NCBI GenBank assembly: GCA_048940925.1
Contig: JBHLOC010000046.1
Location: 1 to 36,265, forward strand
Direction: 5' to 3'
DNA: 36,265 nucleotides
From: Promethearchaeota archaeon
Lineage (GTDB): Archaea > Asgardarchaeota > Lokiarchaeia > Sigyniarchaeales > SOKP01
A program made the translations under genes and the position numbers. Shown piece after piece: positions 2,107 through 26,952 of this stretch (positions are counted from its first letter, which is position 1; every line of letters starts with the position of its first letter). The notes beneath the pieces were generated by a model. That model had not been told where the DNA came from, made no database searches, and saw only the letters and a program-made list of their open reading frames with translations.

Positions 2107-3264
2107 ATGACAATAGAAACAAATATTACCAAAATGTTAGGGATTAAAAAACCGATTATTTCTGCGCCAATGGGTCCATTTTACACTACAGATCTGACAG
2201 TAGCTGTCTCTGAAGCTGGTGGATTGGGCACATTATCGCATACTAATATTGAGAGGGGTCAAGCTTTAGGAGAGGAAACAATATTAGCAGAGGCGGAAGC
2301 CATGACAAGAGAGCAATTATCTCAATCTAGGTTTGGTAGTTCTGTTGACGCCATGAAGAAAAATATGGAATATGTCGTTGAACATACTGACAAGCCCTTC
2401 GGATTTAACATTCGCACCTCCAGAAATGAAACACAAGCAGATAGACTCTGCACTGAAATCCCAAAGTTTATTATGGACAATCCTAAAATCAAGGAACAAT
2501 GTGTGTATGCATTAACATCTGCAGGTTCTTCAAGACGTCTTCCCCAAAGTAAAACTTGGCAGAAGCTAAGAAATGAAACCAGTTCTCAAATAAAGCTTTT
2601 CCATGTAACTCCCGCTTTATGGTTAGCGGAAAAAGCTATTAATCCAAAAGAGGGATCTGACTTTGCAGTTGATGGAATTGTCTGTACTGGTTTAACTGGC
2701 GGTGGTCATCAGTCCTATGAAAAAGTATCCACTCTTGTGCTCCTTCAACAGATTAATCAAAAATACCCTGACTTCCCAAAAATTGCATGTGGAGGATTTG
2801 CAACAGGGGAAAGTTTAGCAGCAGCTTTAACATTAGGAGCTGGTGCAATTGCAATGGGCTCTCGTTTTATCGCGACAGAGGAAAGCGAATTCCACGAAGC
2901 TTATAAAAATGTTATACCCCCCGCAAAGGCTCAAGATACAATTTATGTCACGGGAGTACTTGGCCCAATTAGACTCTGGAAGAATACATATAGTTTGCAC
3001 CATGGTGTTGTCAGCAGTAAAGAGGAGAAGCTTGCTGAAGAAGAGAAAGTAAAACAAATGACTCAGGAAGAATATAGAGATTATTTAATAGATATGGCTA
3101 ACGCATATATCGCTGCATATAGGGGGGATGTTGATTCGGGTGCAGTCCTTCTTGGACAAAGCATTGGTATTATCGATAGTATTGAAAAAGTACCCGATCT
3201 TATGGATAAGATTGTTAAAGATGCTGAGGCTCATCTGAAAAGAGCAACAAGTTATATAAAATAG
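2107..3264 (+). CDS. Nitronate monooxygenase / enoyl-ACP reductase II (FabK)-like FMN oxidoreductase, paralog 1
   Basis: PIISAPM, AVSEAGGLG, PFGFN, GGGH, IACGG and MGSRF motifs. Leader AAAGTGATTTC precedes the ATG. Confidence 0.9.
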   Translation: MTIETNITKMLGIKKPIISAPMGPFYTTDLTVAVSEAGGLGTLSHTNIERGQALGEETILAEAEAMTREQLSQSRFGSSVDAMKKNMEYVVEHTDKPFGFNIRTSRNETQADRLCTEIPKFIMDNPKIKEQCVYALTSAGSSRRLPQSKTWQKLRNETSSQIKLFHVTPALWLAEKAINPKEGSDFAVDGIVCTGLTGGGHQSYEKVSTLVLLQQINQKYPDFPKIACGGFATGESLAAALTLGAGAIAMGSRFIATEESEFHEAYKNVIPPAKAQDTIYVTGVLGPIRLWKNTYSLHHGVVSSKEEKLAEEEKVKQMTQEEYRDYLIDMANAYIAAYRGDVDSGAVLLGQSIGIIDSIEKVPDLMDKIVKDAEAHLKRATSYIK

Positions 3265-3414: not shown

Positions 3415-4542
3415 ATGACAATAGAAACGAATATTACCAAAATGTTTGGTATTAAGCATCCGATTTTTTCGGCAGCAATGGGTCCATTTTATACAACAGA
3501 CCTATGTGTAGCAGTTAGTGAAGCAGGAGGTTTAGGTGTGTTATCCCATACATCAATAGAACGAGGAGCTGATATTCGTGAGGAAACTACATCTACGGAT
3601 ATTAAACTTGATGAAACAACTATGAGAAGGATGAGTATTGATGTAGTAAAAGCAATGAAAAAAAATATGGAATTTGTAGTAGAACATACGGATAAACCTT
3701 TTGGTTTTAATATTAGAACCTCAAGAAATGAAATTCAAGCACCAAAACTCTGTTCAGAAATCCCTAAATTTATAATGGAGAACCAGAGGATTAGAGATCA
3801 GTGTATTTATGCACTTACCAGTGCCGGATCTTCTAAAATTTTACCCGCTAGTAAGACATTCCAGGAATTAAAGGAGAAATCTGAAATTAAACATTTTCAT
3901 GTTGCACCTGCCTTATGGCTTGCAGACAAATGTGTCGATAGTAAAGTGGATGGAATGGTAGTAACTGGTGGTGAAGGTGGAGGACATCAATCTTATGAAA
4001 AGGTTAGTACTCTCGTATTGCTTCAACAAGTACACCAAAAATATCCTGATTTTCCAATAATTGCGTGTGGTGGATTTGCTACTGGAGCAGGTCTAGCAGC
4101 AGCCCTTTCTATGGGGGCAGGGGGGATAGCTATGGGTTCGCGATTCATTGCTAGCAAAGATTCAGAATTTCATGATAATTATAAGAACGTTGTACCACCT
4201 TCAAAAGCACAAGATACTATCTTAGTTACTGGTGCTTTAGGACCAATAAGACTATGGAGAAACGAATACTCATTACACCATGGACTTGTTGCTGACAAAG
4301 ATGCAAAAATTGCAGAAGAAGAAAGACTTCGAAGTATGTCTCGTGAAGATTATATTAAAGAACTTATCGCTTCATCTAACGCATATCTTGCTGCGTATAG
4401 GGGTGATACAAATTCAGGAGCTGTCCTTTTAGGACAAAGCATAGGCATCATTAATAGTATTGAAAGCGTTTCGGATATTATTAATGGAATTGTTTCAGAA
4501 GCAGAAACATTGTTAAAGAACGCTACGGCAAAAATTAAATAA
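3415..4542 (+). CDS. Nitronate monooxygenase / FabK-like FMN oxidoreductase, paralog 2 (tandem duplicate)
   Basis: Same motifs (GGEGGGH). Long identical peptide blocks shared with 2107..3264. Leader AAAGTGATTAT. Confidence 0.9.
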   Translation: MTIETNITKMFGIKHPIFSAAMGPFYTTDLCVAVSEAGGLGVLSHTSIERGADIREETTSTDIKLDETTMRRMSIDVVKAMKKNMEFVVEHTDKPFGFNIRTSRNEIQAPKLCSEIPKFIMENQRIRDQCIYALTSAGSSKILPASKTFQELKEKSEIKHFHVAPALWLADKCVDSKVDGMVVTGGEGGGHQSYEKVSTLVLLQQVHQKYPDFPIIACGGFATGAGLAAALSMGAGGIAMGSRFIASKDSEFHDNYKNVVPPSKAQDTILVTGALGPIRLWRNEYSLHHGLVADKDAKIAEEERLRSMSREDYIKELIASSNAYLAAYRGDTNSGAVLLGQSIGIINSIESVSDIINGIVSEAETLLKNATAKIK

Positions 4543-4600: not shown

Positions 4601-6223
4601 TCATCTATTTAATCGCTCATAAGTTTTCCGCATGATTTTGTAGATATTTAGGAACTCTTCATAAAGTGTATCATAGATTTTCCTATTTTCAGGATTAGGG
4701 GAGTATATATTTGATATTTCACAATACCTTTGGATCTCATCCCATTTCAGGTAGCCAAGTCCTATTGAAGCAATAAACCCCGCTGCTCGCGCATTTGTTT
4801 GAATTGGATTCCTTACTTGCTTGATATTCCTATTTAGAACATCGGCAAATATTTGGCACCATATATCACTTTGAGCTCCACCACCAACAATATTCAACTC
4901 TGGTATAACTATATCCTTTTTTGTGATTCCTTTGTCTTTCATTACCCATTTTCTAATATTGTTCTCAATGTGAAATAATAAACTTCTCACATTATAAGCA
5001 ACTCCTTCAAATACTGCTCTAATTATGTGTTCTCGTGACATTTCAATAGATATATTATATAGACCTCCACGTACCGTATCATCATCAATAGGAGCACGTT
5101 CTCCAACAAGCCAAGGTGTGAAAATAAGGTTATTCGAACCAGCTGGAACTTTTTCTACGATTCGATCAAAAATTTTATATACATCAGGAACAGCTTCTTC
5201 TTTCAGAAGTTCATCTTTATGATAAAGTATTTTATCTCTAAGAAACGACAATGCTCCCCCTGCGATTTCTTGTTCATTTCCGAATATATATCTTCCAGGA
5301 ATCACAGATGGTAAACTTCCTATGGTGTGAGCGATATCTACTTTCTTATATGGAACATTTACCAAAACCCAATCTGAGGTCCCAATATAAATATGACCTT
5401 CATAATCTCCAATAGCTCCCGAACCAATAACTGTTGAAGGTAAGTCTGGAGCACCCATAACTACTTTTGTGCTTTTTTCTAAACCTAACTCATCCGCTAC
5501 TTCCTTTCTTAAGGTTCCTAAAATATCGGTTGATTTATTTAATTTTGAAGGAAATTTATTAGGATCTATTTTAAGCATTTTGATTAATTTCTTAGAATAA
5601 TTTACATTATTAATATCTCGTGTATCTGTTATCCAATGAACATGGATAGATACTACTGAGGTTGCATGCTTTCCAGTTAATTTTAAATTAATGAAATCTT
5701 GAGGTTCAAGGAATTTGTATGTTTTATCATAAATATCAGGTAATTCATTTTTGATAAACAATATATGAGCGATTGGATCTTTTCCTACTAATGATGGTCC
5801 ACCACCAGTCCTTTTCATAAATGCAAGCATTTTTCTTATATTATATCCTGAAACTTTTAATAATCCCTTATTTAGTTTTTCTATATATTTAGCACCTCTA
5901 GTATCCATCCAAATCATAGAATTCATTAAATGGTTTCCATCCTTATCAACAGCAACAGTTCCACTCCACTGACTCGTATTACATACACCCACAATATCTT
6001 CAACTCTCACACGTCCAGCATCAATTACTTTTCTTGCGGTACTTTTAATTGCATTCCACCAATCCTCTGGATTTTGTTCGACAGCACCACCTTTGGATGC
6101 ATATACTGGTGTTTCTTGGAAAGCCCATTCAAGAACTTTTCCTTCTGTAGATACAATCGCAGACTTAGGACCACCAGTTCCATGATCTATTGCCAAAATA
6201 TATTTTATTTGCGAATCAGCCAT
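4601..6223 (-). CDS. FGGY-family carbohydrate kinase (xylulokinase-like)
   Basis: IDHGTGGPKS, EQNPEDWW, WMDTR, GERAP, RAVFEG and GGGAQS motifs. Start moved from 6268 to the ATG at 6223 (MADSQIKYILAID) because the upstream extension is low-complexity. Confidence 0.88.
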   Translation of the reverse strand: MADSQIKYILAIDHGTGGPKSAIVSTEGKVLEWAFQETPVYASKGGAVEQNPEDWWNAIKSTARKVIDAGRVRVEDIVGVCNTSQWSGTVAVDKDGNHLMNSMIWMDTRGAKYIEKLNKGLLKVSGYNIRKMLAFMKRTGGGPSLVGKDPIAHILFIKNELPDIYDKTYKFLEPQDFINLKLTGKHATSVVSIHVHWITDTRDINNVNYSKKLIKMLKIDPNKFPSKLNKSTDILGTLRKEVADELGLEKSTKVVMGAPDLPSTVIGSGAIGDYEGHIYIGTSDWVLVNVPYKKVDIAHTIGSLPSVIPGRYIFGNEQEIAGGALSFLRDKILYHKDELLKEEAVPDVYKIFDRIVEKVPAGSNNLIFTPWLVGERAPIDDDTVRGGLYNISIEMSREHIIRAVFEGVAYNVRSLLFHIENNIRKWVMKDKGITKKDIVIPELNIVGGGAQSDIWCQIFADVLNRNIKQVRNPIQTNARAAGFIASIGLGYLKWDEIQRYCEISNIYSPNPENRKIYDTLYEEFLNIYKIMRKTYERLNR

Positions 6224-6425
6224 AGTTATATAAATGATGTTAAGATAAATAAAGATTATTTGGTACAATAATGTATAATTTTTTTTTATTTCGATTTAAC
6301 CAAAAGTTCTACATGAATTTACTTATTTTTAAATATGAGAAATTTCATTATTATTTTGTCTATAGCTATAGGGTTAATGTGGTTCTAGTAGAAATAGTAT
6401 TTTCACAGAAACAGAGAGGAGTTTC

Positions 6426-8558
6426 TTGCGTACTCTAAGTTCAAAAAAAGCTGAATTTAATAAATATTTTTACTTAATTATTTTTATAATTTTATCTTTC
6501 CTTAGTTTACAGATTCAGGTATTTGCATTAAAAGAAACTCATTATACTAAACAATGGATTAAAGATTCGGAGTTTAATTCCTCCTCAGGTTCATGGTTCA
6601 AGATTTATAATGGAGATTCTTCTGATCTAAATGCTTATATACATTCAGGAAAGGCTAATTTTGAAGTATCAGGTGAGAAAAACACATACTCATTAATAGC
6701 AGATCCACCTTTGGCTTCAAATTGGATTGAAATGGATAATCCTAGTTTCCCAAATCGTCCAGATGTTGATGAAATTACATCTAAAGGTTGTAGAGTCTCT
6801 CATGATTTTGATGACCAATCTCCTATTCAAAGTCCAAGTGTGCATTGGGATAGAAATATTACAATGCCAGTTAATATGTCAGACTACATTATTACTAGTG
6901 CGTCAATTCAGGCAAGAGTTAACGCAACAGTCGATAAGAACCTTGATCGCTATTATGATTTTTTTTATCATTTGAATGCAAGAATAGATCCTCCTATCGA
7001 GGTAGATCAATATGGAAATGGAGATTATGTGAGATTTTATGTTTTACTTTCAGATTTAGAAAAAAATAAAGTCTATGAGATAGCAAATTTACAAACAGTA
7101 TGGTTAGGCAGCGGGGGTGCTCCGGGTACTGCTTATTTATATGATACTTATATGATAAGTGTACCTCAAGAAGATTTAATATATTATCTTTCTTCAACTC
7201 TAAGTACTGATTTCAACAATTTCACAATAACTTTAGGTATGCGATTACAAATTGAAGATAATGTTGGTGCTTATTTGGATAGAGATACATTTAACGAACT
7301 AATCATAAATTTTGTTAATTTAACTTTTATATACGAGAAAAAAATTGATCAATCTTCATCAGTTTCATGGAATCAGATTGGGAATTCTATTAAGGGGGAA
7401 CGTGTCGAGATACAGAATGCTACTTTTCAATTTGCATATAAAATTGATCAAAGCTGGCCACTTTCACTTTCTCTCAATTCTAAGATGAACGTTTTTATTA
7501 ATAATTATGAATATGATTCTCCTATAAAATTATATTCAATGAACACTTCTTTCCAAGAGTTAAGAATAAAAGAGGCAGAATTAATACCTTATATTGTAAA
7601 AAATATTAACATCTCACTCTCTATTCAAGTTTTTGTAGCAGATAAGTTTGTGCTAGATCATCCAATTACAATATCTATCGATGATGTGTATCTTGAAATA
7701 TCATATAGTGTTTGGGAGGAAACAAAACCAGCAAGTAATAATTTTATTTGGATTATATTAATTATTTTAATGATAATAATAGGGATACTTGCAGTTTTAA
7801 GTTTAAGATCATATGTAATTTTACCCCATAAACAAAAAATATCATCTTATTTACGACTCAGAACTCAAAAATTTAAAGATATAAATAATATACAAGGCAT
7901 AATTCTGATCCATAGAGCCAGTGGCCTTCCTATCTACTCATATAGATATTCTTCTTTAATGAAAGGCAAAAAAATTCTTTTTTCTGGCTTTCTTCAAGCA
8001 ATATCGGTTATTGGAGAAGAGATTTCTCGTGAAGAATTCAAGAAGCGTAAAATACCAACAATTTCTGAAGAAATCGACTATAATAAAATAATAGAATTAG
8101 ACTTGAAACAATTTTACTGTTTAGTGTTAGATCTTGAAGAATTACGTACAGTTCTTATTTTGAAGTCAAGATCCTCAAAAAGATTAAAAAAAGTTATGTT
8201 TAATTTTACTTTAGCATTATATCTGAAAATATCTAAAAAGCTAGAACAATTTGATAATGACTTGACCGATTATCCAGAGATAATTTCTCCATTGTTAGAT
8301 GAGTATTTCGAACTAGATTACAAAAAAGACTTCATAACTTATCATAATGAAGGAGACATTCAAGATATTAAGAGAAAATTTAAGCTCTCTAAATTACAAG
8401 TTCAGGTTATGAACATAATTTTCTCACTTTTAAAAGAGAATAGAATTTTTAGATTAATGGATGTCATGGAAAAATTCAGTGAAAAAGACGAAGATTTAAT
8501 TTTTGATACAATAGAAACATTAATTGAATACAAGTTGATTCTTCCCTCTACTAGATAA
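6426..8558 (+). CDS. Single-pass membrane protein: signal/TM, ~400-aa extracellular domain, TM, cytoplasmic longin/roadblock-like domain and C-terminal winged helix
   Basis: TTG start with GAGGAG RBS. Hydrophobic N-terminus, nine N-x-S/T sequons, TM FIWIILIILMIIIGILAVLSL. Segment IQGIILIHRASGLPIYSY..LFSGFLQAISVIGEEI resembles Asgard longin-like domains. Confidence 0.65.
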   Translation: MRTLSSKKAEFNKYFYLIIFIILSFLSLQIQVFALKETHYTKQWIKDSEFNSSSGSWFKIYNGDSSDLNAYIHSGKANFEVSGEKNTYSLIADPPLASNWIEMDNPSFPNRPDVDEITSKGCRVSHDFDDQSPIQSPSVHWDRNITMPVNMSDYIITSASIQARVNATVDKNLDRYYDFFYHLNARIDPPIEVDQYGNGDYVRFYVLLSDLEKNKVYEIANLQTVWLGSGGAPGTAYLYDTYMISVPQEDLIYYLSSTLSTDFNNFTITLGMRLQIEDNVGAYLDRDTFNELIINFVNLTFIYEKKIDQSSSVSWNQIGNSIKGERVEIQNATFQFAYKIDQSWPLSLSLNSKMNVFINNYEYDSPIKLYSMNTSFQELRIKEAELIPYIVKNINISLSIQVFVADKFVLDHPITISIDDVYLEISYSVWEETKPASNNFIWIILIILMIIIGILAVLSLRSYVILPHKQKISSYLRLRTQKFKDINNIQGIILIHRASGLPIYSYRYSSLMKGKKILFSGFLQAISVIGEEISREEFKKRKIPTISEEIDYNKIIELDLKQFYCLVLDLEELRTVLILKSRSSKRLKKVMFNFTLALYLKISKKLEQFDNDLTDYPEIISPLLDEYFELDYKKDFITYHNEGDIQDIKRKFKLSKLQVQVMNIIFSLLKENRIFRLMDVMEKFSEKDEDLIFDTIETLIEYKLILPSTR

Positions 8559-10099: not shown

Positions 10100-11362
10100 T
10101 TAAATATCAAATGCCCATTCTCCTTTACGCATAATTGGTTCGCTAGTTCCATTTTCCAAGATACCGTCAACATCAATTTTATCAGATCCAATCATAAAGT
10201 CAACATGATCCATACTAATATTTCCACCAGCCGCAGAAAATTCTTCATCAGACATTTTTACACCATTAGATATCCAAAATTTTAAACCTCTCCCTAAAGC
10301 AATATGACATGAAGCATTTTCATCAAGGAGAATATTATAAAATAACAATCCTGATTGAGATATTGGCGAACTATGCGGAACTAATGCGACTTCTCCTAAT
10401 CTTCTCGTACCTTCATCCGTTTCAAGTATTTTATGCAACATTTCTTCACCCTTTTTAGCACTGGCATCCACAACTCGTCCTTTGGAGAATGTTAGACTAA
10501 AATCTTCAATCATACCCTCAATAGGAAGCGGCTTTGTTGCAGTAACAAACCCTTCTGTTTTATCCTTATGTGGTAATGTGAAAACTTCTTCAGTAGGTAT
10601 GTTTGCTACATAATCAATCCCGTTTTGACTCTTAAATCTAGCACTTCCCCAAATATGACCTTTAGGTAACCCAACTCTTAGATCAGTTCCTGGAGCAACA
10701 AATTTCAATGCAATATAACGTTTTTTATTTAAATAATCACATCTAGCAGCAAGTTGTTTTATATGAGCTTCCCATACTGCAATTGGATCTTCATTTTTTA
10801 CTCTACAAATCTCAAAAATTATATCCCAAAATTTTTCTTGTCGTTTTTCCGGGGAAATATCAGGAAAGACTTTTTCAGCCCAGCCTTCAACTGGTGCAGT
10901 AACCCCAACCCAATTCAATACATTTTTTGAGATTAAATCACTATAAGGCTTACTATATTTGAGATGAGTCTTCATGGCAGTTGCTATTAAATTATGATCA
11001 TAAGCATTGAGTAAATCTGGATTATATGCAAGAATACGAACTATAGCATCACTATTTTTAGCAAATTCATACTGACAATCAGTACGCCATGTCGCAAATT
11101 CCTCAAAAGAGTCCCTAGGAGCGTGCTGAAACCGTATTAATTTCAATTGTTCATCATCCCACATTACATCAACAAATCTAGCCCCAATCTGGTAAGCCTT
11201 TTTAGCAATCACTCGGATTAAGGGAGCTAATTCAATTGGTGCACCATATTGATATATATTAGGAGTTCCAATCAATAAACGTTGACCTGGTTGCAAATTA
11301 AGTCCTATTTTTAATATTATTTCTGCGTATTTTTCTAAATTTTCCTCAAATTTCGATGTCAT
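10100..11362 (-). CDS. Aminopeptidase, peptidase family M29 (AmpS/AmpT/PepS), paralog 1
   Basis: GLNLQPGQ, ANIPTEEVFT, LGEVALV, LDENASCHIALG and HVDFM metal-ligand motifs. Confidence 0.93.
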   Translation of the reverse strand: MTSKFEENLEKYAEIILKIGLNLQPGQRLLIGTPNIYQYGAPIELAPLIRVIAKKAYQIGARFVDVMWDDEQLKLIRFQHAPRDSFEEFATWRTDCQYEFAKNSDAIVRILAYNPDLLNAYDHNLIATAMKTHLKYSKPYSDLISKNVLNWVGVTAPVEGWAEKVFPDISPEKRQEKFWDIIFEICRVKNEDPIAVWEAHIKQLAARCDYLNKKRYIALKFVAPGTDLRVGLPKGHIWGSARFKSQNGIDYVANIPTEEVFTLPHKDKTEGFVTATKPLPIEGMIEDFSLTFSKGRVVDASAKKGEEMLHKILETDEGTRRLGEVALVPHSSPISQSGLLFYNILLDENASCHIALGRGLKFWISNGVKMSDEEFSAAGGNISMDHVDFMIGSDKIDVDGILENGTSEPIMRKGEWAFDI

Positions 11363-12620: not shown

Positions 12621-15203
12621 TTATATCATTCTATGTTCAGTTCTGGATATAACCTCATCTTGAATTTCTTTTCCAAGATCAGTAAAGTATGCTGAGTATC
12701 CTCCAACTTTCACAATAATATTCCTATAAGGTTCTGGGTCTTTCTGGGCTGCTTTTAGCACTTCTGTAGATACCACGGTAGGTTGAAGTTGTTGTCCTCC
12801 TAAATTAAAGTAGGTTTTGAGAAGGGCAATCCACTTTTTTCTAGCTTGTTCTGTCTTTCCTATTCCTGAGGGATGCATTCGTATATTAACTGCACAACCA
12901 CAAACATGTTGAAAATCTAAAGCTGCAACCGATCGCATAACTCCCGTTGGTCCATGTTTTTCTACATTGTAAGGATTACAGCTTGCTGCAAATGGCTTAC
13001 CTGCAAGTCTTCCATCAGGCGTAGCCATACCTATTCTCCCATCGTAGGTGTGTGAAGTCATAGAAATAATGAAAGGAGCATAGATTCCACCTTTATAAGT
13101 TTTATATTTATAAGTTTCTTCAAATATATGGTTAAAAACTTCTCGAGCAAGCTCATCACATTCAGGATTCCCATTCCCCCATTTTCCTTCTAAATCCATG
13201 ATTATTTTATGAATATATGTATAAATATTCATATAATTATGATCAATTGCTTCTAATAGTTCCTTAAAGGTAAATTTTTTTTGTTCAAAGATAAGTTTTT
13301 TAATGGTATATAGTGAATCGACTGTGTTGGCAATACTATTCATTAGTAGAATGCCTTCTGCATCATAAAAAGCACCTCCCTGAGTTACATCTTTTTTTCT
13401 CTTAAAGCAACCTTGCATGAATGCTGAAATGAAAGGTGCTGGAAAATATTTAGCAAATAATCGATCTCTTATGATTGTTGCCTTGACAATTTGTTTAAGA
13501 ACAAAATCTGATTGACGATAGAATGCATCCAAGAATTCATTAAACGTTTTAAAATTATCTGGATCTCCTGTTTTCAACCCTACATTTTTTACTAAACCAC
13601 CTATTGTTAAGCAATTACCATTTCTTAAAGTCATATCTAGTGTCCTACATAATAGAAAAGCTGAAAAACTAATTCCTCCGGTTTTACCTGGACTGCACAT
13701 ATCTACACAACCTGTTATTGAATATGCATTTGCATCCTGTTCTGAGATTCCTCGATTTTTTAACGCTTCAATACATACATTATCATTTAACACTGATATG
13801 CTTGAATATCCACTATATTGAATTTCTGTAACTTTCATATAAAGTTCTTCAGGAGTTTTATCATGGAAACGGACGGCAAAATTGAGAGATGCTTTTGATC
13901 TATCCGCTGCCTCTAATATCAGATAAGAAAGCTCATTAGTTGCGTCTTCTCCGGCTTCATTCAAGCCTCCAACAGTGACAGGCTCTGAACCTTCAAATCT
14001 TTGACTAAAATCACTCACAGCATTAGAATAAGGACGTATATTATGACTCATTATATTTAATACTAATTCTTCTAATAATTCACGAGCTTCTTCTCGAGTT
14101 ATATACCCCTTTTTGATGTCTGAAAGATAATAAGGATAAAAAAGTTGGTCTAAACGACCTGGTCCATGTACATTAAATGGTATAGCCAAATCAACCATAG
14201 TTTTAATAATCCAAAAAGATTGAACTGCTTCACGAAAAGTAGTAGGTGGATACATTGGAATTCTTCTACATGCTTTATACATATCTGATAATTCATTTCT
14301 TCTTTTATTATCTTCAGTTTTATTTAATTGATCTTTTATTTGTTCTGCTAATCTATGGGCAAATATTATAATAGCTTCATAGGTAATATCAAGTGATTCT
14401 AAAAATCTTTTCTGAACATCAGTTAATTCCTTATTGTTTTTAATTTCATTCTGAACTTCTTTTCGAATTGCCAAAAGTCCTTCATCTAACACTGTTTTAA
14501 AATCAAGAACCAAATGACCTTGCCAAACTCCAATTACAGCACAAGGAGATATTACAATATCATTTTGTGCTGTTTTTAATGGAAGATGAGATAGAAAGTC
14601 ATAGGATTCCCCTGTATATACATCAGATGTTGCATATTCTCTTTCTAATAAGTCTGCTAGAGTCTTATTTTTCCAATAAGGAATGAGTTCAGTTAGGAGA
14701 ATTTTTTTATCTTCATCTTTAATTTTATATGGATTTATCTTTCTTTCTTCAAGAGTATCTGTTCCGAGAGTTGTAATCAAAGCTCCTGTCTTTTTATTAT
14801 GTTCTAACATTTTAAGAAGTCCATCAGCTCCGATTTTATTTACTATATATGACATATAGTTCTTATTACTGTTTTTTACAAATCTTTTCATTGTTTTTGC
14901 ATCAAGTTCAATTTCAAAAACTCTATTCCATAATCCACGTTCGATATCGATTGGTATTCCTATGAAATTTTCAGTCCATTTACCCGCAATTCTATCATCA
15001 GGATCAATATAAATGGTCATATTTTCAAGAACATGCTTCATTGAAATGGCAATTCTTACATTTAAATTTAAAATTTCCTTTTCAGTTTCTTTCCATTTTT
15101 CTGTGTAGTATTTTGCTCTTTCTATAGAAATCAACGGGATTTCATCAAGAAGTCTTCTACGTATTCTTTTTATCCTCTCACTAGCATTATCAACCATATC
15201 CAT
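12621..15203 (-). CDS. Glycyl radical enzyme (PFL2/dehydratase-eliminase superfamily), substrate unknown
   Basis: 860 aa. ISIERA, GRLDQ, Cys loop YSITGCVDMC (C499), KWGN, ATPDGR and Gly loop IIVKVGGYSAYF (G835). It has a single catalytic Cys, not the PFL CC pair. Confidence 0.93.
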   Translation of the reverse strand: MDMVDNASERIKRIRRRLLDEIPLISIERAKYYTEKWKETEKEILNLNVRIAISMKHVLENMTIYIDPDDRIAGKWTENFIGIPIDIERGLWNRVFEIELDAKTMKRFVKNSNKNYMSYIVNKIGADGLLKMLEHNKKTGALITTLGTDTLEERKINPYKIKDEDKKILLTELIPYWKNKTLADLLEREYATSDVYTGESYDFLSHLPLKTAQNDIVISPCAVIGVWQGHLVLDFKTVLDEGLLAIRKEVQNEIKNNKELTDVQKRFLESLDITYEAIIIFAHRLAEQIKDQLNKTEDNKRRNELSDMYKACRRIPMYPPTTFREAVQSFWIIKTMVDLAIPFNVHGPGRLDQLFYPYYLSDIKKGYITREEARELLEELVLNIMSHNIRPYSNAVSDFSQRFEGSEPVTVGGLNEAGEDATNELSYLILEAADRSKASLNFAVRFHDKTPEELYMKVTEIQYSGYSSISVLNDNVCIEALKNRGISEQDANAYSITGCVDMCSPGKTGGISFSAFLLCRTLDMTLRNGNCLTIGGLVKNVGLKTGDPDNFKTFNEFLDAFYRQSDFVLKQIVKATIIRDRLFAKYFPAPFISAFMQGCFKRKKDVTQGGAFYDAEGILLMNSIANTVDSLYTIKKLIFEQKKFTFKELLEAIDHNYMNIYTYIHKIIMDLEGKWGNGNPECDELAREVFNHIFEETYKYKTYKGGIYAPFIISMTSHTYDGRIGMATPDGRLAGKPFAASCNPYNVEKHGPTGVMRSVAALDFQHVCGCAVNIRMHPSGIGKTEQARKKWIALLKTYFNLGGQQLQPTVVSTEVLKAAQKDPEPYRNIIVKVGGYSAYFTDLGKEIQDEVISRTEHRMI

Positions 15204-15362
15204 AATATTATCATTAAAATCTATTTTTGAATATTAAATAATTAGAATCTTACAAAGTAAATATGCATATTGTATAATAACTCAAAATTAATTAAGTATT
15301 ATAAAATTGAAAAATTTATTTTTTCTCATTCTTGATTATGAGTATATAATAGCTTGATTGAT

Positions 15363-16271
15363 TTAATAATTAATTATAACTTGAAATAAATGTCTTTCAA
15401 AAATATCAACGATATTTTTTATGTCATCTTCAGTTAAATCCCCCATATCTTTATAAAGTTTGCCCATACCTACTTTCTCATATTTTGTATTTGCTAATTT
15501 GTTGTATGGCATTAAATGTATTATACCTTGGTAATTGATTTGTTGTAAAAAAGATATAATATTCATAATTGTTTTTTCATCCGTATTTACTGTTGGAATT
15601 AATGGTATGCGAGGAACTATTCTTTCATTACCAACTTTAGAATGAATTTTTGAGAAATTTGTTAAAATTATATCATTACAAACACCAGTAAAATTCTTAT
15701 GTTTCTCATCATCAGGGTGTTTGATGTCAAATAAAAATAAATCGACATTATCTGTTAAATCTTCTATTAAAGATTCATTAAAATAACCACATGTTTCTAC
15801 TGCAACATGAATTCCGTTATTTTTTAATTGTTTTAGCAATTGTATGAGAAACTTAAATTGCATTGTCGGTTCACCACCAGAAATGGTTACACCTCCACCA
15901 GAATTGTCATAAAAAGGTTTATCTCTTAGTGCAATTTCAACTAATTCTTCTATTGAGTACTCTTTTCCTATTATTTCTAAAACTTGATTTGGACATGCTT
16001 CAACACAGTTTCCACAAAGTACACAAAGATTTTCATTTCGAATTATTTCATCAACATTTAAGCTAAGAGCATTATTTGGACACGTTTTTATACATGTTTC
16101 ACATAATAAACACTTTTCTTTAAAATAAGATATTTGAGGATTTAACTTTTGAGATTCTGGATTTTGACACCATAAACATCTTAATGGACATCCTTTCAAA
16201 AATATTAATGTTCGAATTCCTGGTCCATCATATATCGCATAATTTTGAATATCAAAAATAATACCTTTCAT
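15363..16271 (-). CDS. Glycyl-radical enzyme activating enzyme (radical SAM) with 2x[4Fe-4S] ferredoxin insert
   Basis: DGPGIRT, GCPLRCLWCQNPES (CxxxCxxC), CLLCETCIKTCP / CVLCGNCVEACP, SGGEP and ETCG. Confidence 0.95.
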   Translation of the reverse strand: MKGIIFDIQNYAIYDGPGIRTLIFLKGCPLRCLWCQNPESQKLNPQISYFKEKCLLCETCIKTCPNNALSLNVDEIIRNENLCVLCGNCVEACPNQVLEIIGKEYSIEELVEIALRDKPFYDNSGGGVTISGGEPTMQFKFLIQLLKQLKNNGIHVAVETCGYFNESLIEDLTDNVDLFLFDIKHPDDEKHKNFTGVCNDIILTNFSKIHSKVGNERIVPRIPLIPTVNTDEKTIMNIISFLQQINYQGIIHLMPYNKLANTKYEKVGMGKLYKDMGDLTEDDIKNIVDIFERHLFQVIINY

Positions 16272-16279
16272 TTAGATGT

Positions 16280-16390
16280 CTATACCTTCATATGTTCTGT
16301 TCTTGAAATGTTTTCTTCTTGTATTTGTTAACCCAGATCAAAGAAATAAGCACTATATCCTCCAATTATTATATTAATATTGTGATTTAT
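16280..16390 (-). pseudogene. C-terminal remnant of a second glycyl radical enzyme
   Basis: Manual translation gives INHNINIIIGGYSAYFFDLG*QIQEENISRTEHMKV*, which aligns with the intact GRE C-terminus YRNIIVKVGGYSAYFTDLGKEIQDEVISRTEHRMI. It has an internal TAA at the Lys position and no start codon. Confidence 0.9.
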
Positions 16391-17495: not shown

Positions 17496-18938
17496 TTATT
17501 GCTCTTCTAAACCAAGTTCTTTTAATTTTTCTTTATTTATTTTAATTAAGTCAGGTTTAATATCATACCATTTCCAGAAGATTAGGAGAGTTATAAGCAT
17601 TAAAATAGCTGGAACTATTGCAGTGTGAATACGAATACCAAAAAGTGCGAGTGAGTCTTGAGTTTCCGCACCTCCAACATATCCCGTTAAAATATGACTC
17701 AATGCAATTGTAATTGCTATAAATGTTTGACCAAACTTTATAAAGAAAGCTTGAAATCCATAATATATTCTATATTGTGTTTTTCCAGTGCGAACAGAAA
17801 TATCATCAAGCACATCGCCCATTAAAGGAGGATCAATATACCAATTCGCACCAATTCCAATTCCAAAAAAAATTAACCCAATAATCCATCCTATTACATT
17901 ACCTACAAAAATCAATGGTATAAAAGTTATAAACAGTGTAGCACAAGCAATTATAGCGATCTTTCTATTATCATTTACCTTATGAGCAATTATTGTCCAC
18001 AGAGGAACAGATATTAACGCACCTACTAACATCATTAACAATAATACTGTTATGCTTGTTTCATTCAGAAGTATGTAAGTAACCACATAAAAAGCAGATG
18101 TTTGGATCATAACACCACCAACTTGATAACCAAAAAAGTGTACCATTTTCAACATAAATCTTTTGTCTTTTATTGCTGTTAAAGTAGATTTAAAGAATGG
18201 CTCTATTTCTTCTTTAACACCTGATTCTCTCCTCTGAATATGTAAATTTCTCATACGTTTATCTTCAAATATTCCTGGTATTGTAAAAATAAATATTATT
18301 AACCCTAATCCAACACTAAAAATTGCTCCAAATATATAACCAGAAGCAATAAGAGTCTTTTCACCAATAAAAAACATTGGCGGTATTGCAGCAGCTACTA
18401 ACCCTATTATCCCTAAAATAGTACCAAAACCCTGTGTTGTTCTCCTTTCTCCTAAAGATTTGAATTTATCAGGATATATAGAAACAACATTAACATCATA
18501 AAGTGTTGCTAATGTATCATAGATACATAAACTTATCACATACCATGCAAAAATTGACCATTTATTCTGGTTGACAATAGAACTTGTTCCATACCATTGA
18601 GAGGGTACCAAGTAAATTGATAAATAAGATATTAACCATGGAATAAATGCTATCACCACCCAAGGAAAACGTTTGAATCCTTTCTTTTCCCATGGCATAT
18701 GAATTTTCTCTAAAAACCATCCGATTAATGGGTCATTTATAGCATTCCATATAGAATAAATTGTAAAAGCTAATGCAGCTAGAATCGTAGGCAATGCTAT
18801 TACATTCTCATAAAAGAAAAACACTGAAAATCCAAAAGCAGCAAATATCCATTGTCCCATAAGTTCTCTAGAACCATAAGAGGCCATAATTTTTTTGCTG
18901 TATTTATACTCTTCTTTTCTTTCTTCTGACAATTTCAA
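17496..18938 (-). CDS. MFS transporter, glycoside-pentoside-hexuronide (GPH/MelB-like) family
   Basis: IWNAINDPLIG, KRFPW, about 12 TM segments, GDVLDD..RTG. TTG start with AGGAG RBS. Confidence 0.85.
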   Translation of the reverse strand: MKLSEERKEEYKYSKKIMASYGSRELMGQWIFAAFGFSVFFFYENVIALPTILAALAFTIYSIWNAINDPLIGWFLEKIHMPWEKKGFKRFPWVVIAFIPWLISYLSIYLVPSQWYGTSSIVNQNKWSIFAWYVISLCIYDTLATLYDVNVVSIYPDKFKSLGERRTTQGFGTILGIIGLVAAAIPPMFFIGEKTLIASGYIFGAIFSVGLGLIIFIFTIPGIFEDKRMRNLHIQRRESGVKEEIEPFFKSTLTAIKDKRFMLKMVHFFGYQVGGVMIQTSAFYVVTYILLNETSITVLLLMMLVGALISVPLWTIIAHKVNDNRKIAIIACATLFITFIPLIFVGNVIGWIIGLIFFGIGIGANWYIDPPLMGDVLDDISVRTGKTQYRIYYGFQAFFIKFGQTFIAITIALSHILTGYVGGAETQDSLALFGIRIHTAIVPAILMLITLLIFWKWYDIKPDLIKINKEKLKELGLEEQ

Positions 18939-19080: not shown

Positions 19081-20481
19081 TTAATGATATTCTATATTGA
19101 CTGTATCTAGTTTTTTAATAGCTATTTTTTTTTGAATCCATAATTCTTTAGCCTTTTTAACCCATTGTTCAAACTTATTTATATCTTTTGGATAATTTTC
19201 ATAGTGCTTTTTAATTTTTCCAGCTAAACTATTAGCTTGTAATAAACGTTTCATATGTTTAAATGATAATTTTCTAAGTATCAATCCCGCTATAATTTTT
19301 AAAATGAATTTTAACATGTCTCCTGGACTCATCTCCTCTTCATATTTTTTATTTGGTTCAGGTATATCATCAACTTCACCATTCTGATAAATTAAACCTT
19401 TCTTTAAAAAGTAATTCCATTCCTTTTCGTTAAAATTTAAAACTCCAGATAATTGAGTAAAAAGACTAGCAAATTTTGCTCCTTGATCTCTGAAATAATT
19501 AACGTTTATATCCCAAAGAACTTCTCTGGTAAGATATCCATTAATTTTAAGAGGTTTTTCTATTACTTCAGATGCTATTATACATAAGACCCAGGTTGCT
19601 GTAACACCATGACCAGAGAAAGGATAAGTTATAGCTGCAGCATCTCCAATACATAAAAATCCATCTGCGACCAGTGAATAAGGTGGTCTTCTATATGGCG
19701 TACTACCTTGTTCTTTTTTTATTATCTCATAAGGTGGAAGATTTGCTCTCCTAAGAAAATCTTCACGAGCATTCTTCGCATTTTCAAATGACCCTGGTTG
19801 ACCTACTCCTAATATTGCTCCTTCTGGATCATAAGATGGTCCAAACCATAATAACCACCAGTTGTGTCCTGTGTCTGTAGGAGGATGAGGCTTATTTGGA
19901 TATTTCCATTTTATATATTCCAAAAGGACATACATTACATCATTTGGACCTAATTTGAAAGTTTCTACGCCATAATCATCTGGTAAGGATGTCCTTATAA
20001 CCGCTGATTTTCCTGAAGCATCAATAATTAATCGAGAACGATACTCTTTTCTATTTCCATCTGATTCTGCGAATAAACCTACAATTTTATTATCTTCAAG
20101 AATAATATCTTTAAATTCAGTTGAAAATTCTAGCTTTACTCCGTCTGATTCTAATACTTTATACATTCTGTTTAAAAATGGTGTTAAACGTACAATTGTC
20201 TGAAATGCTTTGAGCTTTATTTCTGTCTTAAAATCTGGGGTAATAACAGTTGAAATATCTCTAATTTCAATACAGTCTGGAGCCCCAACTTTAAATGGAG
20301 GTATCCCCGCCATTTCAACCCTATCCGTCTCAAAATGAATTACATCTAATCGCTTTCCGACTTCTTCTCTTTTATCTTTTTCAATTAAGATAACTGAAAA
20401 TCCTTTTTTGGCTATTAACCAGCTAATATAAGTGCCCGCAGTTCCAGCACCCACAACAAGTACATCACTCTTTTCTAACAT
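19081..20481 (-). CDS. FAD-dependent oxidoreductase, geranylgeranyl-reductase-like family
   Basis: DVLVVGAGTAG, IIDASG and IGDAA..YPFSGHG. The canonical DGGR PxxYxWxFP motif is not evident. Confidence 0.75.
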   Translation of the reverse strand: MLEKSDVLVVGAGTAGTYISWLIAKKGFSVILIEKDKREEVGKRLDVIHFETDRVEMAGIPPFKVGAPDCIEIRDISTVITPDFKTEIKLKAFQTIVRLTPFLNRMYKVLESDGVKLEFSTEFKDIILEDNKIVGLFAESDGNRKEYRSRLIIDASGKSAVIRTSLPDDYGVETFKLGPNDVMYVLLEYIKWKYPNKPHPPTDTGHNWWLLWFGPSYDPEGAILGVGQPGSFENAKNAREDFLRRANLPPYEIIKKEQGSTPYRRPPYSLVADGFLCIGDAAAITYPFSGHGVTATWVLCIIASEVIEKPLKINGYLTREVLWDINVNYFRDQGAKFASLFTQLSGVLNFNEKEWNYFLKKGLIYQNGEVDDIPEPNKKYEEEMSPGDMLKFILKIIAGLILRKLSFKHMKRLLQANSLAGKIKKHYENYPKDINKFEQWVKKAKELWIQKKIAIKKLDTVNIEYH

Positions 20482-22043: not shown

Positions 22044-23309
22044 TTACAATTCAAAAGACCATTCTCCATTTTGCATAATCAATTCGGTGGTTCCATCTTC
22101 CAGTATCCCTTCTACATTCGTATCACTAGAACCAAACATGCAGTCAATGTGAATTATACTGTGATTACCTCCCGCAGCTAAAAATTCCTCATCAGACATA
22201 TTTTCTCCATTTTTAAAGCTAAATTTATAGCCTCTTCCCAACGCAATATGATTTGAAGCATTTTCATCAATAAGAATATTATAAAATAGTAATCCGGATT
22301 GTGAAATCGGAGAGCTATGAGGCACTAATGCAATTTCCCCTAAATATCTGGCACCTTCATCAGTTTCAATTAATTTATTCAATAAATCTTCTCCCTTTTT
22401 AGCAATTGCCTCTACAATCTCTCCATTAGAAAAAGTTAGTTTAAAATCTTCAATAAGACTACCACTAAAGTAGATTGGTTTGGTACCTTTTACCACACCC
22501 TCAGTTTTATCTTTATGTGGTATAGTGAATACTTCTTCAGTAGGAATGTTTGCTGCAAAAGTGATGCCATTTTTGCTGGTCATTGAACCACTTTGCCATA
22601 TATGCATTTTTGGTAAGCCAACGTTTAAATTTGTTCCCTTTGCAGTAAATTTCAATGATATATAATGTTTCTTATTAAGATAATCACTTATCTCAGCAAG
22701 TTGTTTTATATGATTTTGCCAAGCTAAAACAGGATCTTCTTGTTTTATACGACATATCTCAAAGATAGTATCCCAAAATTTGTGTTTTCGCTCTTCTGAG
22801 GGGATATTAGGAAATACTTTATCCACCCATCCATTTAATGGCGCCGTGATTACTGACCAATTCATTGTATTTTGAACCAGTAAATCCATAATTGGTTCTT
22901 CATGTTTAAAGTAAGTTCTTTGAACAGTTGTTAATAAATCAGGATCTGCATCATTAAGTAGATCCGGATCTTCAGCGTAGATAATAAGTATAGCTTCACC
23001 ATTTTTCGCCATATTATATACTAAGTCAGTTCTCCATGTAGCAAATTCTTCAAATGAATCTCGAGGAGCGTATTTATATCGAATTGGTTGCAATTGATTG
23101 TCAACCCACATCACATCAACAAATTTTGATCCTATTTGATAAGCTTTTTTTACAACCAATCTTATTAACGGAGCTAGCTCAATAGGAGCATAAGTCTCGG
23201 CAAATATTGGTGCTCCTATCAATAGACGTTGACCTGGTTGTAAATTAAGTCCTACTTTAACGATAACCTCCGCATATTTATCTAAATTTTTTTCAAACTC
23301 TAATGTCAT
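22044..23309 (-). CDS. Aminopeptidase, peptidase family M29, paralog 2
   Basis: GLNLQPGQ, ANIPTEEVFT, LGEIALV, IDENASNHIALG and HIDCM; colinear with 10100..11362. Confidence 0.93.
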   Translation of the reverse strand: MTLEFEKNLDKYAEVIVKVGLNLQPGQRLLIGAPIFAETYAPIELAPLIRLVVKKAYQIGSKFVDVMWVDNQLQPIRYKYAPRDSFEEFATWRTDLVYNMAKNGEAILIIYAEDPDLLNDADPDLLTTVQRTYFKHEEPIMDLLVQNTMNWSVITAPLNGWVDKVFPNIPSEERKHKFWDTIFEICRIKQEDPVLAWQNHIKQLAEISDYLNKKHYISLKFTAKGTNLNVGLPKMHIWQSGSMTSKNGITFAANIPTEEVFTIPHKDKTEGVVKGTKPIYFSGSLIEDFKLTFSNGEIVEAIAKKGEDLLNKLIETDEGARYLGEIALVPHSSPISQSGLLFYNILIDENASNHIALGRGYKFSFKNGENMSDEEFLAAGGNHSIIHIDCMFGSSDTNVEGILEDGTTELIMQNGEWSFEL

Positions 23310-23521: not shown

Positions 23522-26107
23522 ATGAAAAGTGAAAAATTAACTCTCTATTATCTAGCAAAATACACTAATCATGAACTGCTTATAGATGAGTTAGTTTTAA
23601 CAAGGGGTGAAAATCAATTAGAATCATTAAGTTCAAATAAAGCAAGAAGTAGATCCATAAAAATAAAGATTATTCGCACTAAGATTTTTTATGCAATAAT
23701 ATTTGGAATATTACCAATAACTCCTCTTTTAGGATATTTTCAAATTGCGGATTTACTTCTGCAGGGTGGTATTTCACCAGAAATAATTATTTTTCATGGC
23801 AGTCTCTTTATCAGTTTATTTTTCATACTTCAATTTTTCAATTTTTTTTTAATGGGAATGCTAGAGACTGGTATGATAATGTCAGGAAGAATCTTTGAGT
23901 GGTTCCAAACGTTACCTATTACACGAAAAAAATTACAGAAATTAGTATTTTTAACTATTTTTCGTAGTTTTGATGTACCAATAATAGTAATAATATTTGC
24001 TTTTCCTCTTATAATGTTTATAGGGACTTTAGATCCTGTTCTTTTTTTAATCAGTATTGGAATTTCGGTGATAAATGTAATATTCTCATTTAGTATTATA
24101 ATTTTAACTGGAGCAAGAATGAAACGTATTTTAGATCTTAACGAGATGAACTCTAGGAGATCCTATAAAATTCGATTATTTAATATAATTACTTATATAA
24201 TTATCATTCTTGGAAGCATGTATTTTATTCAATGGACATTTACTTCGATAGATGTCTTTTTTAGAATGTTTTTAGCAATAGGTAATCATTCTACGATAAA
24301 TTTCGCACTCAGCATCATTCCTTATCCATTTAATCCTAGTTATTTTGTTGCTATCTTTATTATTATTGGTAATAGGAATCAAGTTCCTTCAAATTTATGG
24401 ATAAGTACAATTATAGGATTATGCTTTTTTTCTATTATTTCATTCTTTCTTTTTAAAAGGGCTTTATCGACTCTAGAAAAAATTACCTTTTCAAAATTCC
24501 AAAAAGATGACAAGAGTTATAATTTGAGTCAAATTAAAACTTATAAACAGATTAAAATTAAACGGTTATCCCCCTTTAAAGCATTTCTAAGAAAGGATTT
24601 GGTTTTAATTTCTCATGATCTTAAAACATTAATGGCTATAATCACATCTGTTATCCTTTCTTTTGTATTCTTATTTTATTATAATTTACAAAATATTGGA
24701 AGAAATGTTCCCACAGAATTTTTAATTTATACAAATTTAGTAGGTATACTAATATTTAGTCCTGTTCTTTCTGGCATGCTTATATTCAGTTTTTTAAGCT
24801 TGGAGGATTCCGGTCAATCAGTAATCACTTCATTACCAATTGTACCCCAAGATCAGGCAAAATCGAAATTACTTCTTATTTTCATAATTCAAACAATTGC
24901 ATTGGTTTTGCCTCCATTGATGTTTATTCCTGATCAGAAGTTTATACCATTAATGTCCGCAACACTTATAGCATTACCTTTTACATACATGTTTTTGATG
25001 ATTATATTCGAGCTAAAAATACATTTTTTCGGAAAAAAGAAGTACAATTATGTTGTTAATGATGTTGTTCCTAAGAATAAATTATTAAAATGGGTAGGTA
25101 TAATGAGTATCCAATATTGTTTTTGTATTTGGATTGTCTCATTTGTATTAACGTTTTTCATTTATAATAATATTCTCGCTCTGCTTTCTTTTTTGACAAT
25201 GTCGGCAATTGTTGGACTTGCAAGTGTAGGCTGGATTTTTATAAGAATGTTTCCTAAAATTAAGAAGGAGAAAATAGTCAAGGCACCAAGAACAATTTTA
25301 ATAATTCCAAAACCTACATTTTTCTCAAAACATCCGTGGATCTCAATAATATCCTTAATAATTTTGTATTACTATTTTTGGGAGCTACTAATTTCTACTT
25401 TTACCTTCTATGTTTATCAAATTTGGATCCCTTTTTCTAATTATAGAACTTATTATTTAATGTTATTTATACAAATTCTTTTGTCTAACTTCTTTTATAC
25501 TGCCTTATTAATAATAATTGTTCCTCTAATATTAGGACTACCTGACGGGCGCCAACCAGTAAGACAATATATGAAAAGTATTGGATTAAGAGGGATCATT
25601 TCATATCCAAGAATGATATTAGGAAGATTATCGAAAAAAATAGAATTAAAGTATTATAATAATACAACAAGGAGAGCTAAATTAACGGCAAGGAGCGTAT
25701 TAGGTATAATTTTACTCTTTTTAATAATACTACTTATATTTTCGTTTTTAGATTTAGAAATAGTTATGAGATTTCTTTCTAATGCTAGTTTCTTGTTTTG
25801 GCAAGAAGTATTATTCCGAGGAATTATATTATCTATTTTCTTGAACAAATACACAAAAGGTAAAAGTATTGTTTTAAATTCATTGTTATCTCTTGGTGGA
25901 ATTATTTTATATGCTTTTTTATCTTTTTTATTGACTGGATTTTTAATTTTGGATTTATTTATGAATCTATATTTTTTTACCTTTATGATAATAAATAGTT
26001 TAATTAGTGCGTTTTTATATACTAAAAAAAGAAATCTTTTCCTATGTTTTGCTGTGAGTGTAATACTATATTTAGTAATCGTCCCCTACTTTGTCACAAT
26101 GTTTTAA
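23522..26107 (+). CDS. Polytopic membrane protein: ABC-exporter permease-like region fused to a degenerate CPBP (CAAX protease/Abi)-like C-terminal domain
   Basis: Two permease-like halves (FQTLPI..K, AFLRKDL..ISHD, ITSLPI). C-terminal FWQEVLFRGIIL resembles the CPBP EExxFRG motif. Confidence 0.6.
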   Translation: MKSEKLTLYYLAKYTNHELLIDELVLTRGENQLESLSSNKARSRSIKIKIIRTKIFYAIIFGILPITPLLGYFQIADLLLQGGISPEIIIFHGSLFISLFFILQFFNFFLMGMLETGMIMSGRIFEWFQTLPITRKKLQKLVFLTIFRSFDVPIIVIIFAFPLIMFIGTLDPVLFLISIGISVINVIFSFSIIILTGARMKRILDLNEMNSRRSYKIRLFNIITYIIIILGSMYFIQWTFTSIDVFFRMFLAIGNHSTINFALSIIPYPFNPSYFVAIFIIIGNRNQVPSNLWISTIIGLCFFSIISFFLFKRALSTLEKITFSKFQKDDKSYNLSQIKTYKQIKIKRLSPFKAFLRKDLVLISHDLKTLMAIITSVILSFVFLFYYNLQNIGRNVPTEFLIYTNLVGILIFSPVLSGMLIFSFLSLEDSGQSVITSLPIVPQDQAKSKLLLIFIIQTIALVLPPLMFIPDQKFIPLMSATLIALPFTYMFLMIIFELKIHFFGKKKYNYVVNDVVPKNKLLKWVGIMSIQYCFCIWIVSFVLTFFIYNNILALLSFLTMSAIVGLASVGWIFIRMFPKIKKEKIVKAPRTILIIPKPTFFSKHPWISIISLIILYYYFWELLISTFTFYVYQIWIPFSNYRTYYLMLFIQILLSNFFYTALLIIIVPLILGLPDGRQPVRQYMKSIGLRGIISYPRMILGRLSKKIELKYYNNTTRRAKLTARSVLGIILLFLIILLIFSFLDLEIVMRFLSNASFLFWQEVLFRGIILSIFLNKYTKGKSIVLNSLLSLGGIILYAFLSFLLTGFLILDLFMNLYFFTFMIINSLISAFLYTKKRNLFLCFAVSVILYLVIVPYFVTMF

Positions 26108-26913: not shown

Positions 26914-26952
26914 CATTCTTTACTTTATTCATTAAATAATTTGGTGATGAAT

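Follow-up and report, generated by a model that had tools for sequence, protein, structure and literature searches.

What does a glycyl radical enzyme (GRE) do when the residue that the eliminases of its superfamily keep as glutamate is an aspartate? This question is raised by contig JBHLOC010000046.1 of a Promethearchaeota archaeon (Lokiarchaeia; assembly GCA_048940925.1), whose positions 1 to 36,265 form the stretch that we analyzed and that is here called the window. At 12621-15203 on its minus strand an uninterrupted open reading frame (ORF) encodes an intact, oxygen-sensitive GRE of 860 aa (P0001), in which C-X-D (CXD) stands in place of the C-X-E (CXE) of the known eliminases and which belongs to a clade with this loop and a KVGGYS glycine loop. 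A first-pass annotation had taken the loop sequences as hints to a different substrate pose or a new reaction class. The answer that we favour, with moderate confidence, is that P0001 is a functional GRE of an uncharacterised CXD subfamily, most likely a dehydratase-type 1,2-eliminase that acts on an imported, sugar-like polyhydroxy substrate and passes its product to an aldolase.

The gene has all parts by which the superfamily is recognized, namely the barrel and glycine radical domains (PF02901, E 1.2e-148, 497 bits; PF01228, E 2.3e-20, 73.5 bits; both above cut-off), a (R/K)VxG(Y/F) loop, a catalytic Cys and an adjoining gene for a radical S-adenosylmethionine (SAM) activase. Direct translation of the minus strand places the Cys loop G498-C499-V500-D501-M502-C503 at 13695-13712, as part of YSITGCVDMC (13695-13724), with C499 at 13707-13709 and D501 at 13701-13703, and the Gly loop K832-V-G-G835-Y at 12696-12710, exactly as the first-pass annotation had numbered them. 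Aligned to the GCVE loops of glycerol dehydratase (GD), 1,2-propanediol dehydratase (PD), PflD and 9rco, C499 is the predicted thiyl radical site, with D501 in place of the canonical Glu, and alignment column counts make G835 (12699-12701) the predicted glycyl radical site. Since both motifs occupy the homologous Cys- and Gly-loop columns of the full-length GRE alignment, chance is no issue here. The loop has a single Cys at the catalytic position and lacks the adjacent Cys-Cys pair of pyruvate formate-lyase (PFL). On the upstream side of the GRE gene, the adjoining gene (15363-16271, minus) encodes the GRE activating enzyme, a radical-SAM protein of 302 aa (P0002; PF04055, Fer4, TIGR02494 with 339.9 bits vs a cut-off of 174) with the motif CPLRCLWC (CX3CX2C) at 16167-16190 and a dicluster ferredoxin insert with two Fer4 motifs at 15954-16133. 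This insert, which had been pointed out before, is indeed present, but it is the norm for TIGR02494 and other non-PFL activases and is therefore not distinctive.

In overall similarity P0001 is nearest to the eliminase and isomerase class, and not to PFL, the decarboxylases or the X-succinate synthases, as both sequence and fold rankings of solved structures indicate. A sequence search of the PDB gave PD as best match (1.8e-116), followed by HpsG (4.7e-114), GD (1.3e-107), HypD and CutC, whereas MasD, BssA and HPAD were far weaker and the X-succinate synthases reached only 1e-53 to 1e-54. An AlphaFold2 (AF2) model built with 64 aligned sequences (pLDDT 94.3, pTM 0.94) matches solved GREs with TM 0.85-0.94, and in the Foldseek ranking PD, GD and HypD come first (TM 0.85/0.92, 26-31% identity), with HPAD and the succinate synthases at the bottom. 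However, no solved structure exceeds 31% identity to P0001, and the protein stays below the cut-offs of the PFL2-3 subfamily model TIGR01774 (500.9 vs 678.2) and of the NCBIfam equivalogs for HpsG/HpfG (484 vs 1000), HypD (454 vs 1100), CutC (389 vs 1050), PFL (101 vs 994), IAD (347 vs 1100) and HPAD (274 vs 1150). All closest solved structures have GCVE. A June 2026 review (PMC13450708) reports CXE for every characterised eliminase (six C-O, one C-N, three C-S) and for all three isomerases, the Glu forming a hydrogen bond to the substrate, in line with what the first-pass annotation had stated for the eliminases; with C499-V-D501, P0001 departs from this rule of GD, PD, HypD, CutC, IslA, HpsG, YbiW, PflD and HplG. 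A literature search for GRE mutants with a Glu-to-Asp exchange (E491D and similar) returned unrelated proteins only. Among archaeal PFL-like GREs none has a known function (PMC13450708), and the sole structurally characterised one, Archaeoglobus fulgidus PFL2 (2F3O), whose function is debated, has the same fold as P0001 (TM 0.84/0.94) but belongs to a different clade (26% identity, 8.3e-91).

The aspartate could have been a sequencing error or a private substitution, but both are ruled out by its distribution. A word-indexed search covering 5.8 billion proteins gave, among the matches listed, 120 homologues with 57-94% identity to P0001, and C-V-D is present in 120/120 of them. Scanning 185,579 species genomes yielded 163 stretches with relatives, most of the examined ones carrying CXD, of which 78 distinct loci were kept; they stem from Promethearchaeota/Asgard metagenome-assembled genomes (MAGs, including Hermod- and Helarchaeota), Dehalococcoidia, Desulfobacterota, Spirochaetota/Leptospirales, Actinomycetota and candidate phyla. 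Every GRE of the fetched loci with at least ~54% identity, from Asgard archaea and several phyla of anaerobic bacteria, reads [GS]-C-[VT]-D, and a group at 48-52% identity reads G-C-V-E. HMMER, run exhaustively against 1.84 billion cluster representatives, then shows a gap in identity, with two representatives at 47-49% (~890-900 bits) and all other full-length GREs at 38% or lower and ~458 bits or less. In the D501 column of ~133 full-length outgroup cluster representatives Glu occurs 102 times and Asp only four times. The genome itself (4.8 Mb) encodes five more GRE paralogues with 31-36% identity to P0001 (loci L085-L089, at C55:93784-95868, C35:654-2672, C32:38233-40263, C78:73668-75737 and C63:26532-28613), all of them with GCVE, and the Asp is therefore specific to P0001. 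Because it is fixed in the relatives, whereas the five paralogues of the same genome keep Glu, the Asp is neither an error nor private nor a habit of the organism. The genome is unusually rich in GREs for an archaeon; the paralogue on C55 pairs GCVE with KVGGYN, and that on C63 has an in-frame TAA.

In a FastTree phylogeny of 218 sequences the KVGGY superclade, to which P0001 belongs, and a CXE sister clade within it are each supported with 1.0. C-V-D is found in 61/61 tips of the CXD clade and C-V-E in 19/19 sequences of the sister clade; next to the CXE clade, two sequences with C-T-D branch off. All 32 CXD sequences from Asgard archaea group together (support 0.998) within a set of bacterial CXD sequences, a placement that indicates transfer between the domains. 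The sister clade (P0124, L057-L083, including Helarchaeota Hel_GB_A) is uncharacterised as well and shares 48-52% identity over the full length with P0001, together with the N-terminal insert, KVGGYS, R402, H346 and the PGK after the Cys loop, but it keeps the Glu, has Leu at 404 (19/19, against Glu in 61/61 of the CXD clade), Ala at 513 and Tyr at 711, and carries the Cys that follows the loop one position later (residue 504). The insert itself, ~70 aa at residues ~78-148 (~14760-14972), is specific to the superclade and absent from GD and PD in pairwise alignments; its region holds the invariant residues W76, E78, G82, P84, E88, R89, G90, N93 and E99, and AF2 confidently models a long helix at 102-139. 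One cluster representative of the superclade (P0123, 859 aa, 47% identity) has V-C-A-N as Cys loop and KVGGF as Gly loop, and at the base position it lacks both Glu and Asp. Thus the observation of the first-pass annotation is confirmed, and its interpretation is partly supported. The GCVD loop is conserved throughout the clade (61/61 tips, 120/120 listed homologues), and two of the deflating outcomes that it had itself named are excluded, the Asp being clade-wide and the nearest solved structures lying at 31% identity or below. In contrast, the second Cys, C503, does not hold as a hallmark, since this position varies inside the CXD clade (C/S/A/V/L), and KVGGY as a sign of new chemistry fails as well, being common to the GCVE sister clade and to a 36%-identical GCVE paralogue, with Lys in ~12 of the ~133 neighbouring GRE clusters. 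Judged from these alignments, the Glu-to-Asp exchange alone is clade-defining among the motif features examined.

GD Ser282, Tyr339 and Asp447, which we take to be substrate-contact positions of this enzyme, align to V345, S406 and F513 of P0001. Specificity positions of the CXD clade, defined as at least 95% fixed in the clade and differing in both sister and outgroups, are W227, F343, V345, H387, E404, E407, L440, D501, F513, E616, L619, A709, F711 and G754. About half of them lie in the segments aligned to the three GD positions and to HpsG Arg672, where F343, V345, E404, E407, F513 and F711 co-vary with D501; E404 and E407 form, within E404-G-S406-E407 (13983-13994, minus), a clade-specific acidic pair that flanks the position aligned to GD Tyr339. 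As far as the aligned positions tell, the Asp travels with a remodelled, more acidic and more aromatic pocket, which argues for a different substrate rather than for drift. H230 (14514-14516, minus), at least 90% conserved in the 64-sequence GRE alignment, aligns in pairwise HMMER alignment to GD His164 and corresponds to PD His166 on strand 1. GD His164 is the general acid that protonates the leaving hydroxyl (PMC13450708). With this His retained and Asp being the same kind of base as Glu, nothing points to the new reaction class that had been suspected, and a new substrate for the known elimination chemistry is the more economical reading.

What kind of substrate this may be is indicated by the genes around P0001. 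In the window a co-directional run consists of genes for an FAD oxidoreductase, a GPH symporter, an Eda aldolase, a GRE stump, the activase and the GRE. The aldolase, a typical class I KHG/KDPG aldolase of the Eda family with 211 aa (P0003; 16391-17026, minus; PF01081, 7e-64; PDB 1vhc, 5.8e-61), exceeds the cut-offs of TIGR01182 and NF004325 and is the only PF01081 match in the 4.8-Mb genome. The symporter of the GPH family (MFS_2; 17496-18938, minus; PF13347, 8.5e-43; match to TIGR00792, gph, below cut-off) is likely the importer of the substrate. Upstream of the transporter follows an FAD-dependent oxidoreductase (19081-20481, minus), according to Pfam and NCBIfam a distant member of the geranylgeranyl-reductase family, which is kept upstream in eight archaeal CXD loci. 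Counted within 7 kb of the GRE, the 32 archaeal CXD loci contain genes for the activase in 25 cases, GPH in 15, Eda in 15, and a XylB-like FGGY kinase, a cupin isomerase and an AroE-like dehydrogenase in seven each, and a fusion of 2-hydroxyacid dehydrogenase and metallo-beta-lactamase recurs in some of them. The 29 bacterial CXD loci have the activase in 25, GPH in 16, TetR in 14, an iron-dependent alcohol dehydrogenase (Fe-ADH) in eight, a second CXD GRE in seven, and the XylB-like kinase and DeoC in five each. The bacterial DeoC passes the equivalog of deoxyribose-phosphate aldolase (DERA; 202 vs a cut-off of 117), and the archaeal and bacterial kinases encoded beside CXD GREs share 51-54% identity and score near the xylulokinase cut-off. 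The 21 CXE sister loci, by contrast, have acetoacetate-decarboxylase-like (15), acyl-CoA dehydrogenase (14), epimerase (12) and SDR genes (11), and GPH, Eda, kinase and DeoC were found in 0/21 of them within the same distance. Gene context therefore splits cleanly by loop type. The GCVE sister loci (L057-L083, e.g., L060:9992-14632), which occur in bacteria, Helarchaeota and Promethearchaeota, are also flanked by NAD-epimerase, TetR and often URO-D-family genes, and this sister clade looks like a second uncharacterised GRE pathway. For the CXD clade, the gene neighbours suggest that the GRE starts an anaerobic breakdown route for a sugar-like compound.

The stump between eda and the activase gene (16280-16390, minus) covers the C-terminal Gly-loop region of a second GRE and is a pseudogene with an in-frame stop; frame 0 reads IIIGGYSAYFFDLG, the stop and QIQEENISRTEH, vs IIVKVGGYSAYFTDLGKEIQDEVISRTEH in the intact GRE. 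By this reading frame it is what is left of a second GRE in tandem. L017 has the intact order of second GRE, activating enzyme and GRE, and in L030 a further remnant is located upstream of the GRE gene. Bacteria often have tandem GCVD and SCVD GRE paralogues, and some Asgard loci have two copies. In the bacterial operons L001, L002, L034, L035, L039, L041 and L044 the adjacent GCVD and SCVD GREs share one activase gene between both, and such tandem pairs are reminiscent of epimer-specific GRE pairs.

From the retained catalytic residues and this context we infer the following course of the reaction. The radical-SAM activase would generate the radical at G835, from where it would be transferred to C499. 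The C499 thiyl radical would then take a hydrogen from the carbinol carbon of the substrate, D501, replacing the usual Glu, would deprotonate the hydroxyl of that carbon, H230 would protonate the neighbouring leaving group, and the product radical would finally recover the hydrogen from C499. Glycerol and propanediol are improbable as substrates; a larger sugar-like polyhydroxy compound (an alditol, aldonate or anhydro-sugar) that is brought in by the GPH symporter is more likely. Cleavage of the deoxy-carbonyl product would fall to the adjoining Eda aldolase in the archaeon itself, and in the relatives the product would be phosphorylated by the XylB-like kinase and then cleaved by Eda in archaea or DERA in bacteria. 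For the bacterial operons it can be imagined that a pentitol, or its phosphate, is converted to a 2-deoxy-pentose (phosphate), which DERA would split into glyceraldehyde 3-phosphate and acetaldehyde, with Fe-ADH reducing the latter to ethanol, and that the tandem GCVD and SCVD paralogues each serve one C2 epimer. At the Asgard loci an aldonate-type substrate might give a 2-keto-3-deoxy acid for Eda. More tentatively, and possible rather than probable in our view, the CXD clade could found a radical route of anaerobic sugar and polyol catabolism, in which the vicinal diol of an alditol or aldonate is dehydrated and the product goes to DERA or Eda, and which would be the first functionally assignable archaeal GRE pathway. 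Such a route would lead from a pentitol to a 2-deoxy-pentose in bacteria and from a hexonate-type compound to a 2-keto-3-deoxy acid in Asgard archaea, would end in glyceraldehyde 3-phosphate plus acetaldehyde (DERA) or plus pyruvate (Eda), and would use a GRE in place of the Fe-S or enolase-type sugar-acid dehydratases. Asp501, Glu404 and Glu407 might then be the adaptation that seats a long polyhydroxy chain over the thiyl radical. A literature search tying GREs to pentitols or deoxyribose gave nothing informative.

Several points weigh against the assignment of P0001 as a dehydratase in sugar breakdown. Eda and DERA differ in the substrate that they need, and no single substrate was found that fits both contexts, so that one common product is hard to reconcile with them. 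The acidic and hydrophobic changes specific to the clade, as read from the alignment, argue against an anionic aldonate or phosphate as substrate, with which they fit poorly. An orthologue of the XylB-like kinase was not found in the archaeon's own genome, the cluster in the window is without such a kinase, and the pathway may therefore differ from that of the relatives. The FGGY gene of the window at 4601-6268 was considered as pathway kinase and ruled out, being 29% identical to the GRE-linked kinases. Moreover, two IlvD/Edd-family dehydratases are encoded in the same genome, which could feed Eda without any GRE. Finally, FastTree gives the main CXD clade weak support as a monophyletic group (0.37), and the mapping of the active site rests on pairwise sequence alignments.

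Among the other explanations, the one that survives best is a different reaction type, although we consider it rather unlikely: P0001 could be an isomerase like YbiW and PflD that opens the ring of an anhydro-sugar or cleaves a glycosidic or ether C-O bond, or a C-N lyase acting on an amino-polyol, with the shorter Asp and the additional Glu residues repositioning a new kind of substrate. The isomerase class likewise feeds a sugar aldolase, and the clade has gained E404, E407 and E616, which would give an acidic pocket that could bind ammonium or many hydroxyls. YbiW and PflD (1,5-anhydro-hexitol 6-phosphate isomerases; 8ID7, 8ID0, 8YJO) resemble the proposed pathway in that the GRE leads to a deoxy-keto sugar, which a class I aldolase converts to triose phosphate, and they are paired paralogues for related substrates, so that the tandem GCVD and SCVD genes recall epimer-specific pairs such as YbiW/PflD and HpyG/HpzG. 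However, they share only ~26% identity with P0001, the aldolase is a different one, and their substrates arrive phosphorylated, whereas the CXD clade is linked to a symporter and a separate FGGY kinase. CXE is kept in all three known isomerases. Genes for a PIG-L deacetylase and a class-III aminotransferase recur near some archaeal loci, but this linkage is weak, with 6-7 loci that are mostly close relatives with shared synteny.

Less likely still, and given little credence here, is the explanation that P0001 dehydrates glycerol or 1,2-propanediol in the ordinary way and that the Glu-to-Asp exchange is functionally neutral drift. PD (Roseburia inulinivorans, 5I2G/5I2A; 9RCO) and the B12-independent GD (Clostridium butyricum, 1R8W) are the top matches in sequence and structure, and they agree with P0001 in the ten-stranded barrel fold, the positions of the Cys and Gly loops, the general-acid His and the ferredoxin insert of the activase. 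But the identity is 28-31%, all equivalogs and PFL2-3 remain below cut-off, their loop is GCVE, all three GD contacts listed above are replaced, and the Asp is fixed in more than 60 divergent sequences and thus not drifting. PD and GD are encoded among aldehyde-processing genes, whereas the context of the clade is made up of transporter, kinase and aldolase; genes for an aldehyde dehydrogenase, a 1,3-propanediol dehydrogenase or microcompartment shell proteins were not seen among the ORFs of the window that were examined.

A C-S lyase or dehydratase of 2,3-dihydroxypropane-1-sulfonate (DHPS) or isethionate (HpsG, HpfG or IslA type), which would end a sulfo-Entner-Doudoroff (sulfo-ED) route with Eda making sulfolactaldehyde, is very improbable. 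HpsG (6LON) is the second-best PDB match, no NCBIfam equivalog scores higher than that of (2S)-3-sulfopropanediol dehydratase, HpsG and P0001 both have a TSH motif after the strand that bears Arg672 in HpsG, Eda-type aldolases act in the sulfo-ED route, and the importer of sulfoquinovose is a member of the GPH family. Nevertheless, HpsG and HpfG have a CXE loop, the equivalog score is less than half of the cut-off, and the kinase that recurs in the relatives is unneeded in the sulfo-ED route. This reading was ruled out on the anchoring residues: of the two Arg and one Gln that hold the sulfonate in HpsG, Arg183 aligns to I224 of P0001, Gln187 to H230 and Arg672 to F711. Finally, an alkyl- or benzylsuccinate synthase, as which single-Cys GREs of Hermodarchaeota and other Asgard archaea, 29-33% identical to AssA/BssA, have been annotated (PMC8163825), and to which the origin of the CXD locus L031 from a Hermodarchaeota MAG might point, is the least probable of all and was ruled out on similarity rank and context, since the X-succinate synthases rank near the bottom of the matches (1e-53 to 1e-54 vs 1e-116 for PD; TM ~0.8, 22% identity), the context is that of sugar transporter, aldolase and kinase, and among the neighbouring ORFs examined no small-subunit (beta/gamma) or beta-oxidation genes were seen, with no search dedicated to very small ORFs.

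Apart from the cluster, the window contains two M29 aminopeptidase paralogues that bracket it (10100-11362 and 22044-23309, both minus), three nitronate-monooxygenase-like (NMO) genes (2107-3264, 3415-4542 and 26941-27843, plus), and two ORFs on the plus strand without Pfam match, one of 861 aa (23522-26107), which, though close to P0001 in size, is no GRE, and one of 710 aa (6426-8558). For a DUF2804 neighbour neither a solved relative nor an NCBIfam match was found.

Taken together, the CXD clade is an uncharacterised, clearly delimited, coherent and widespread subfamily of GREs. It calls for caution where Asgard GREs have been published as succinate synthases that activate hydrocarbons. Identification of its substrate would add a function to the GRE superfamily and test how far radical elimination tolerates a change in the side-chain length of the base, and it would reveal a fermentative carbon source of the Asgard archaea that live in sediments.

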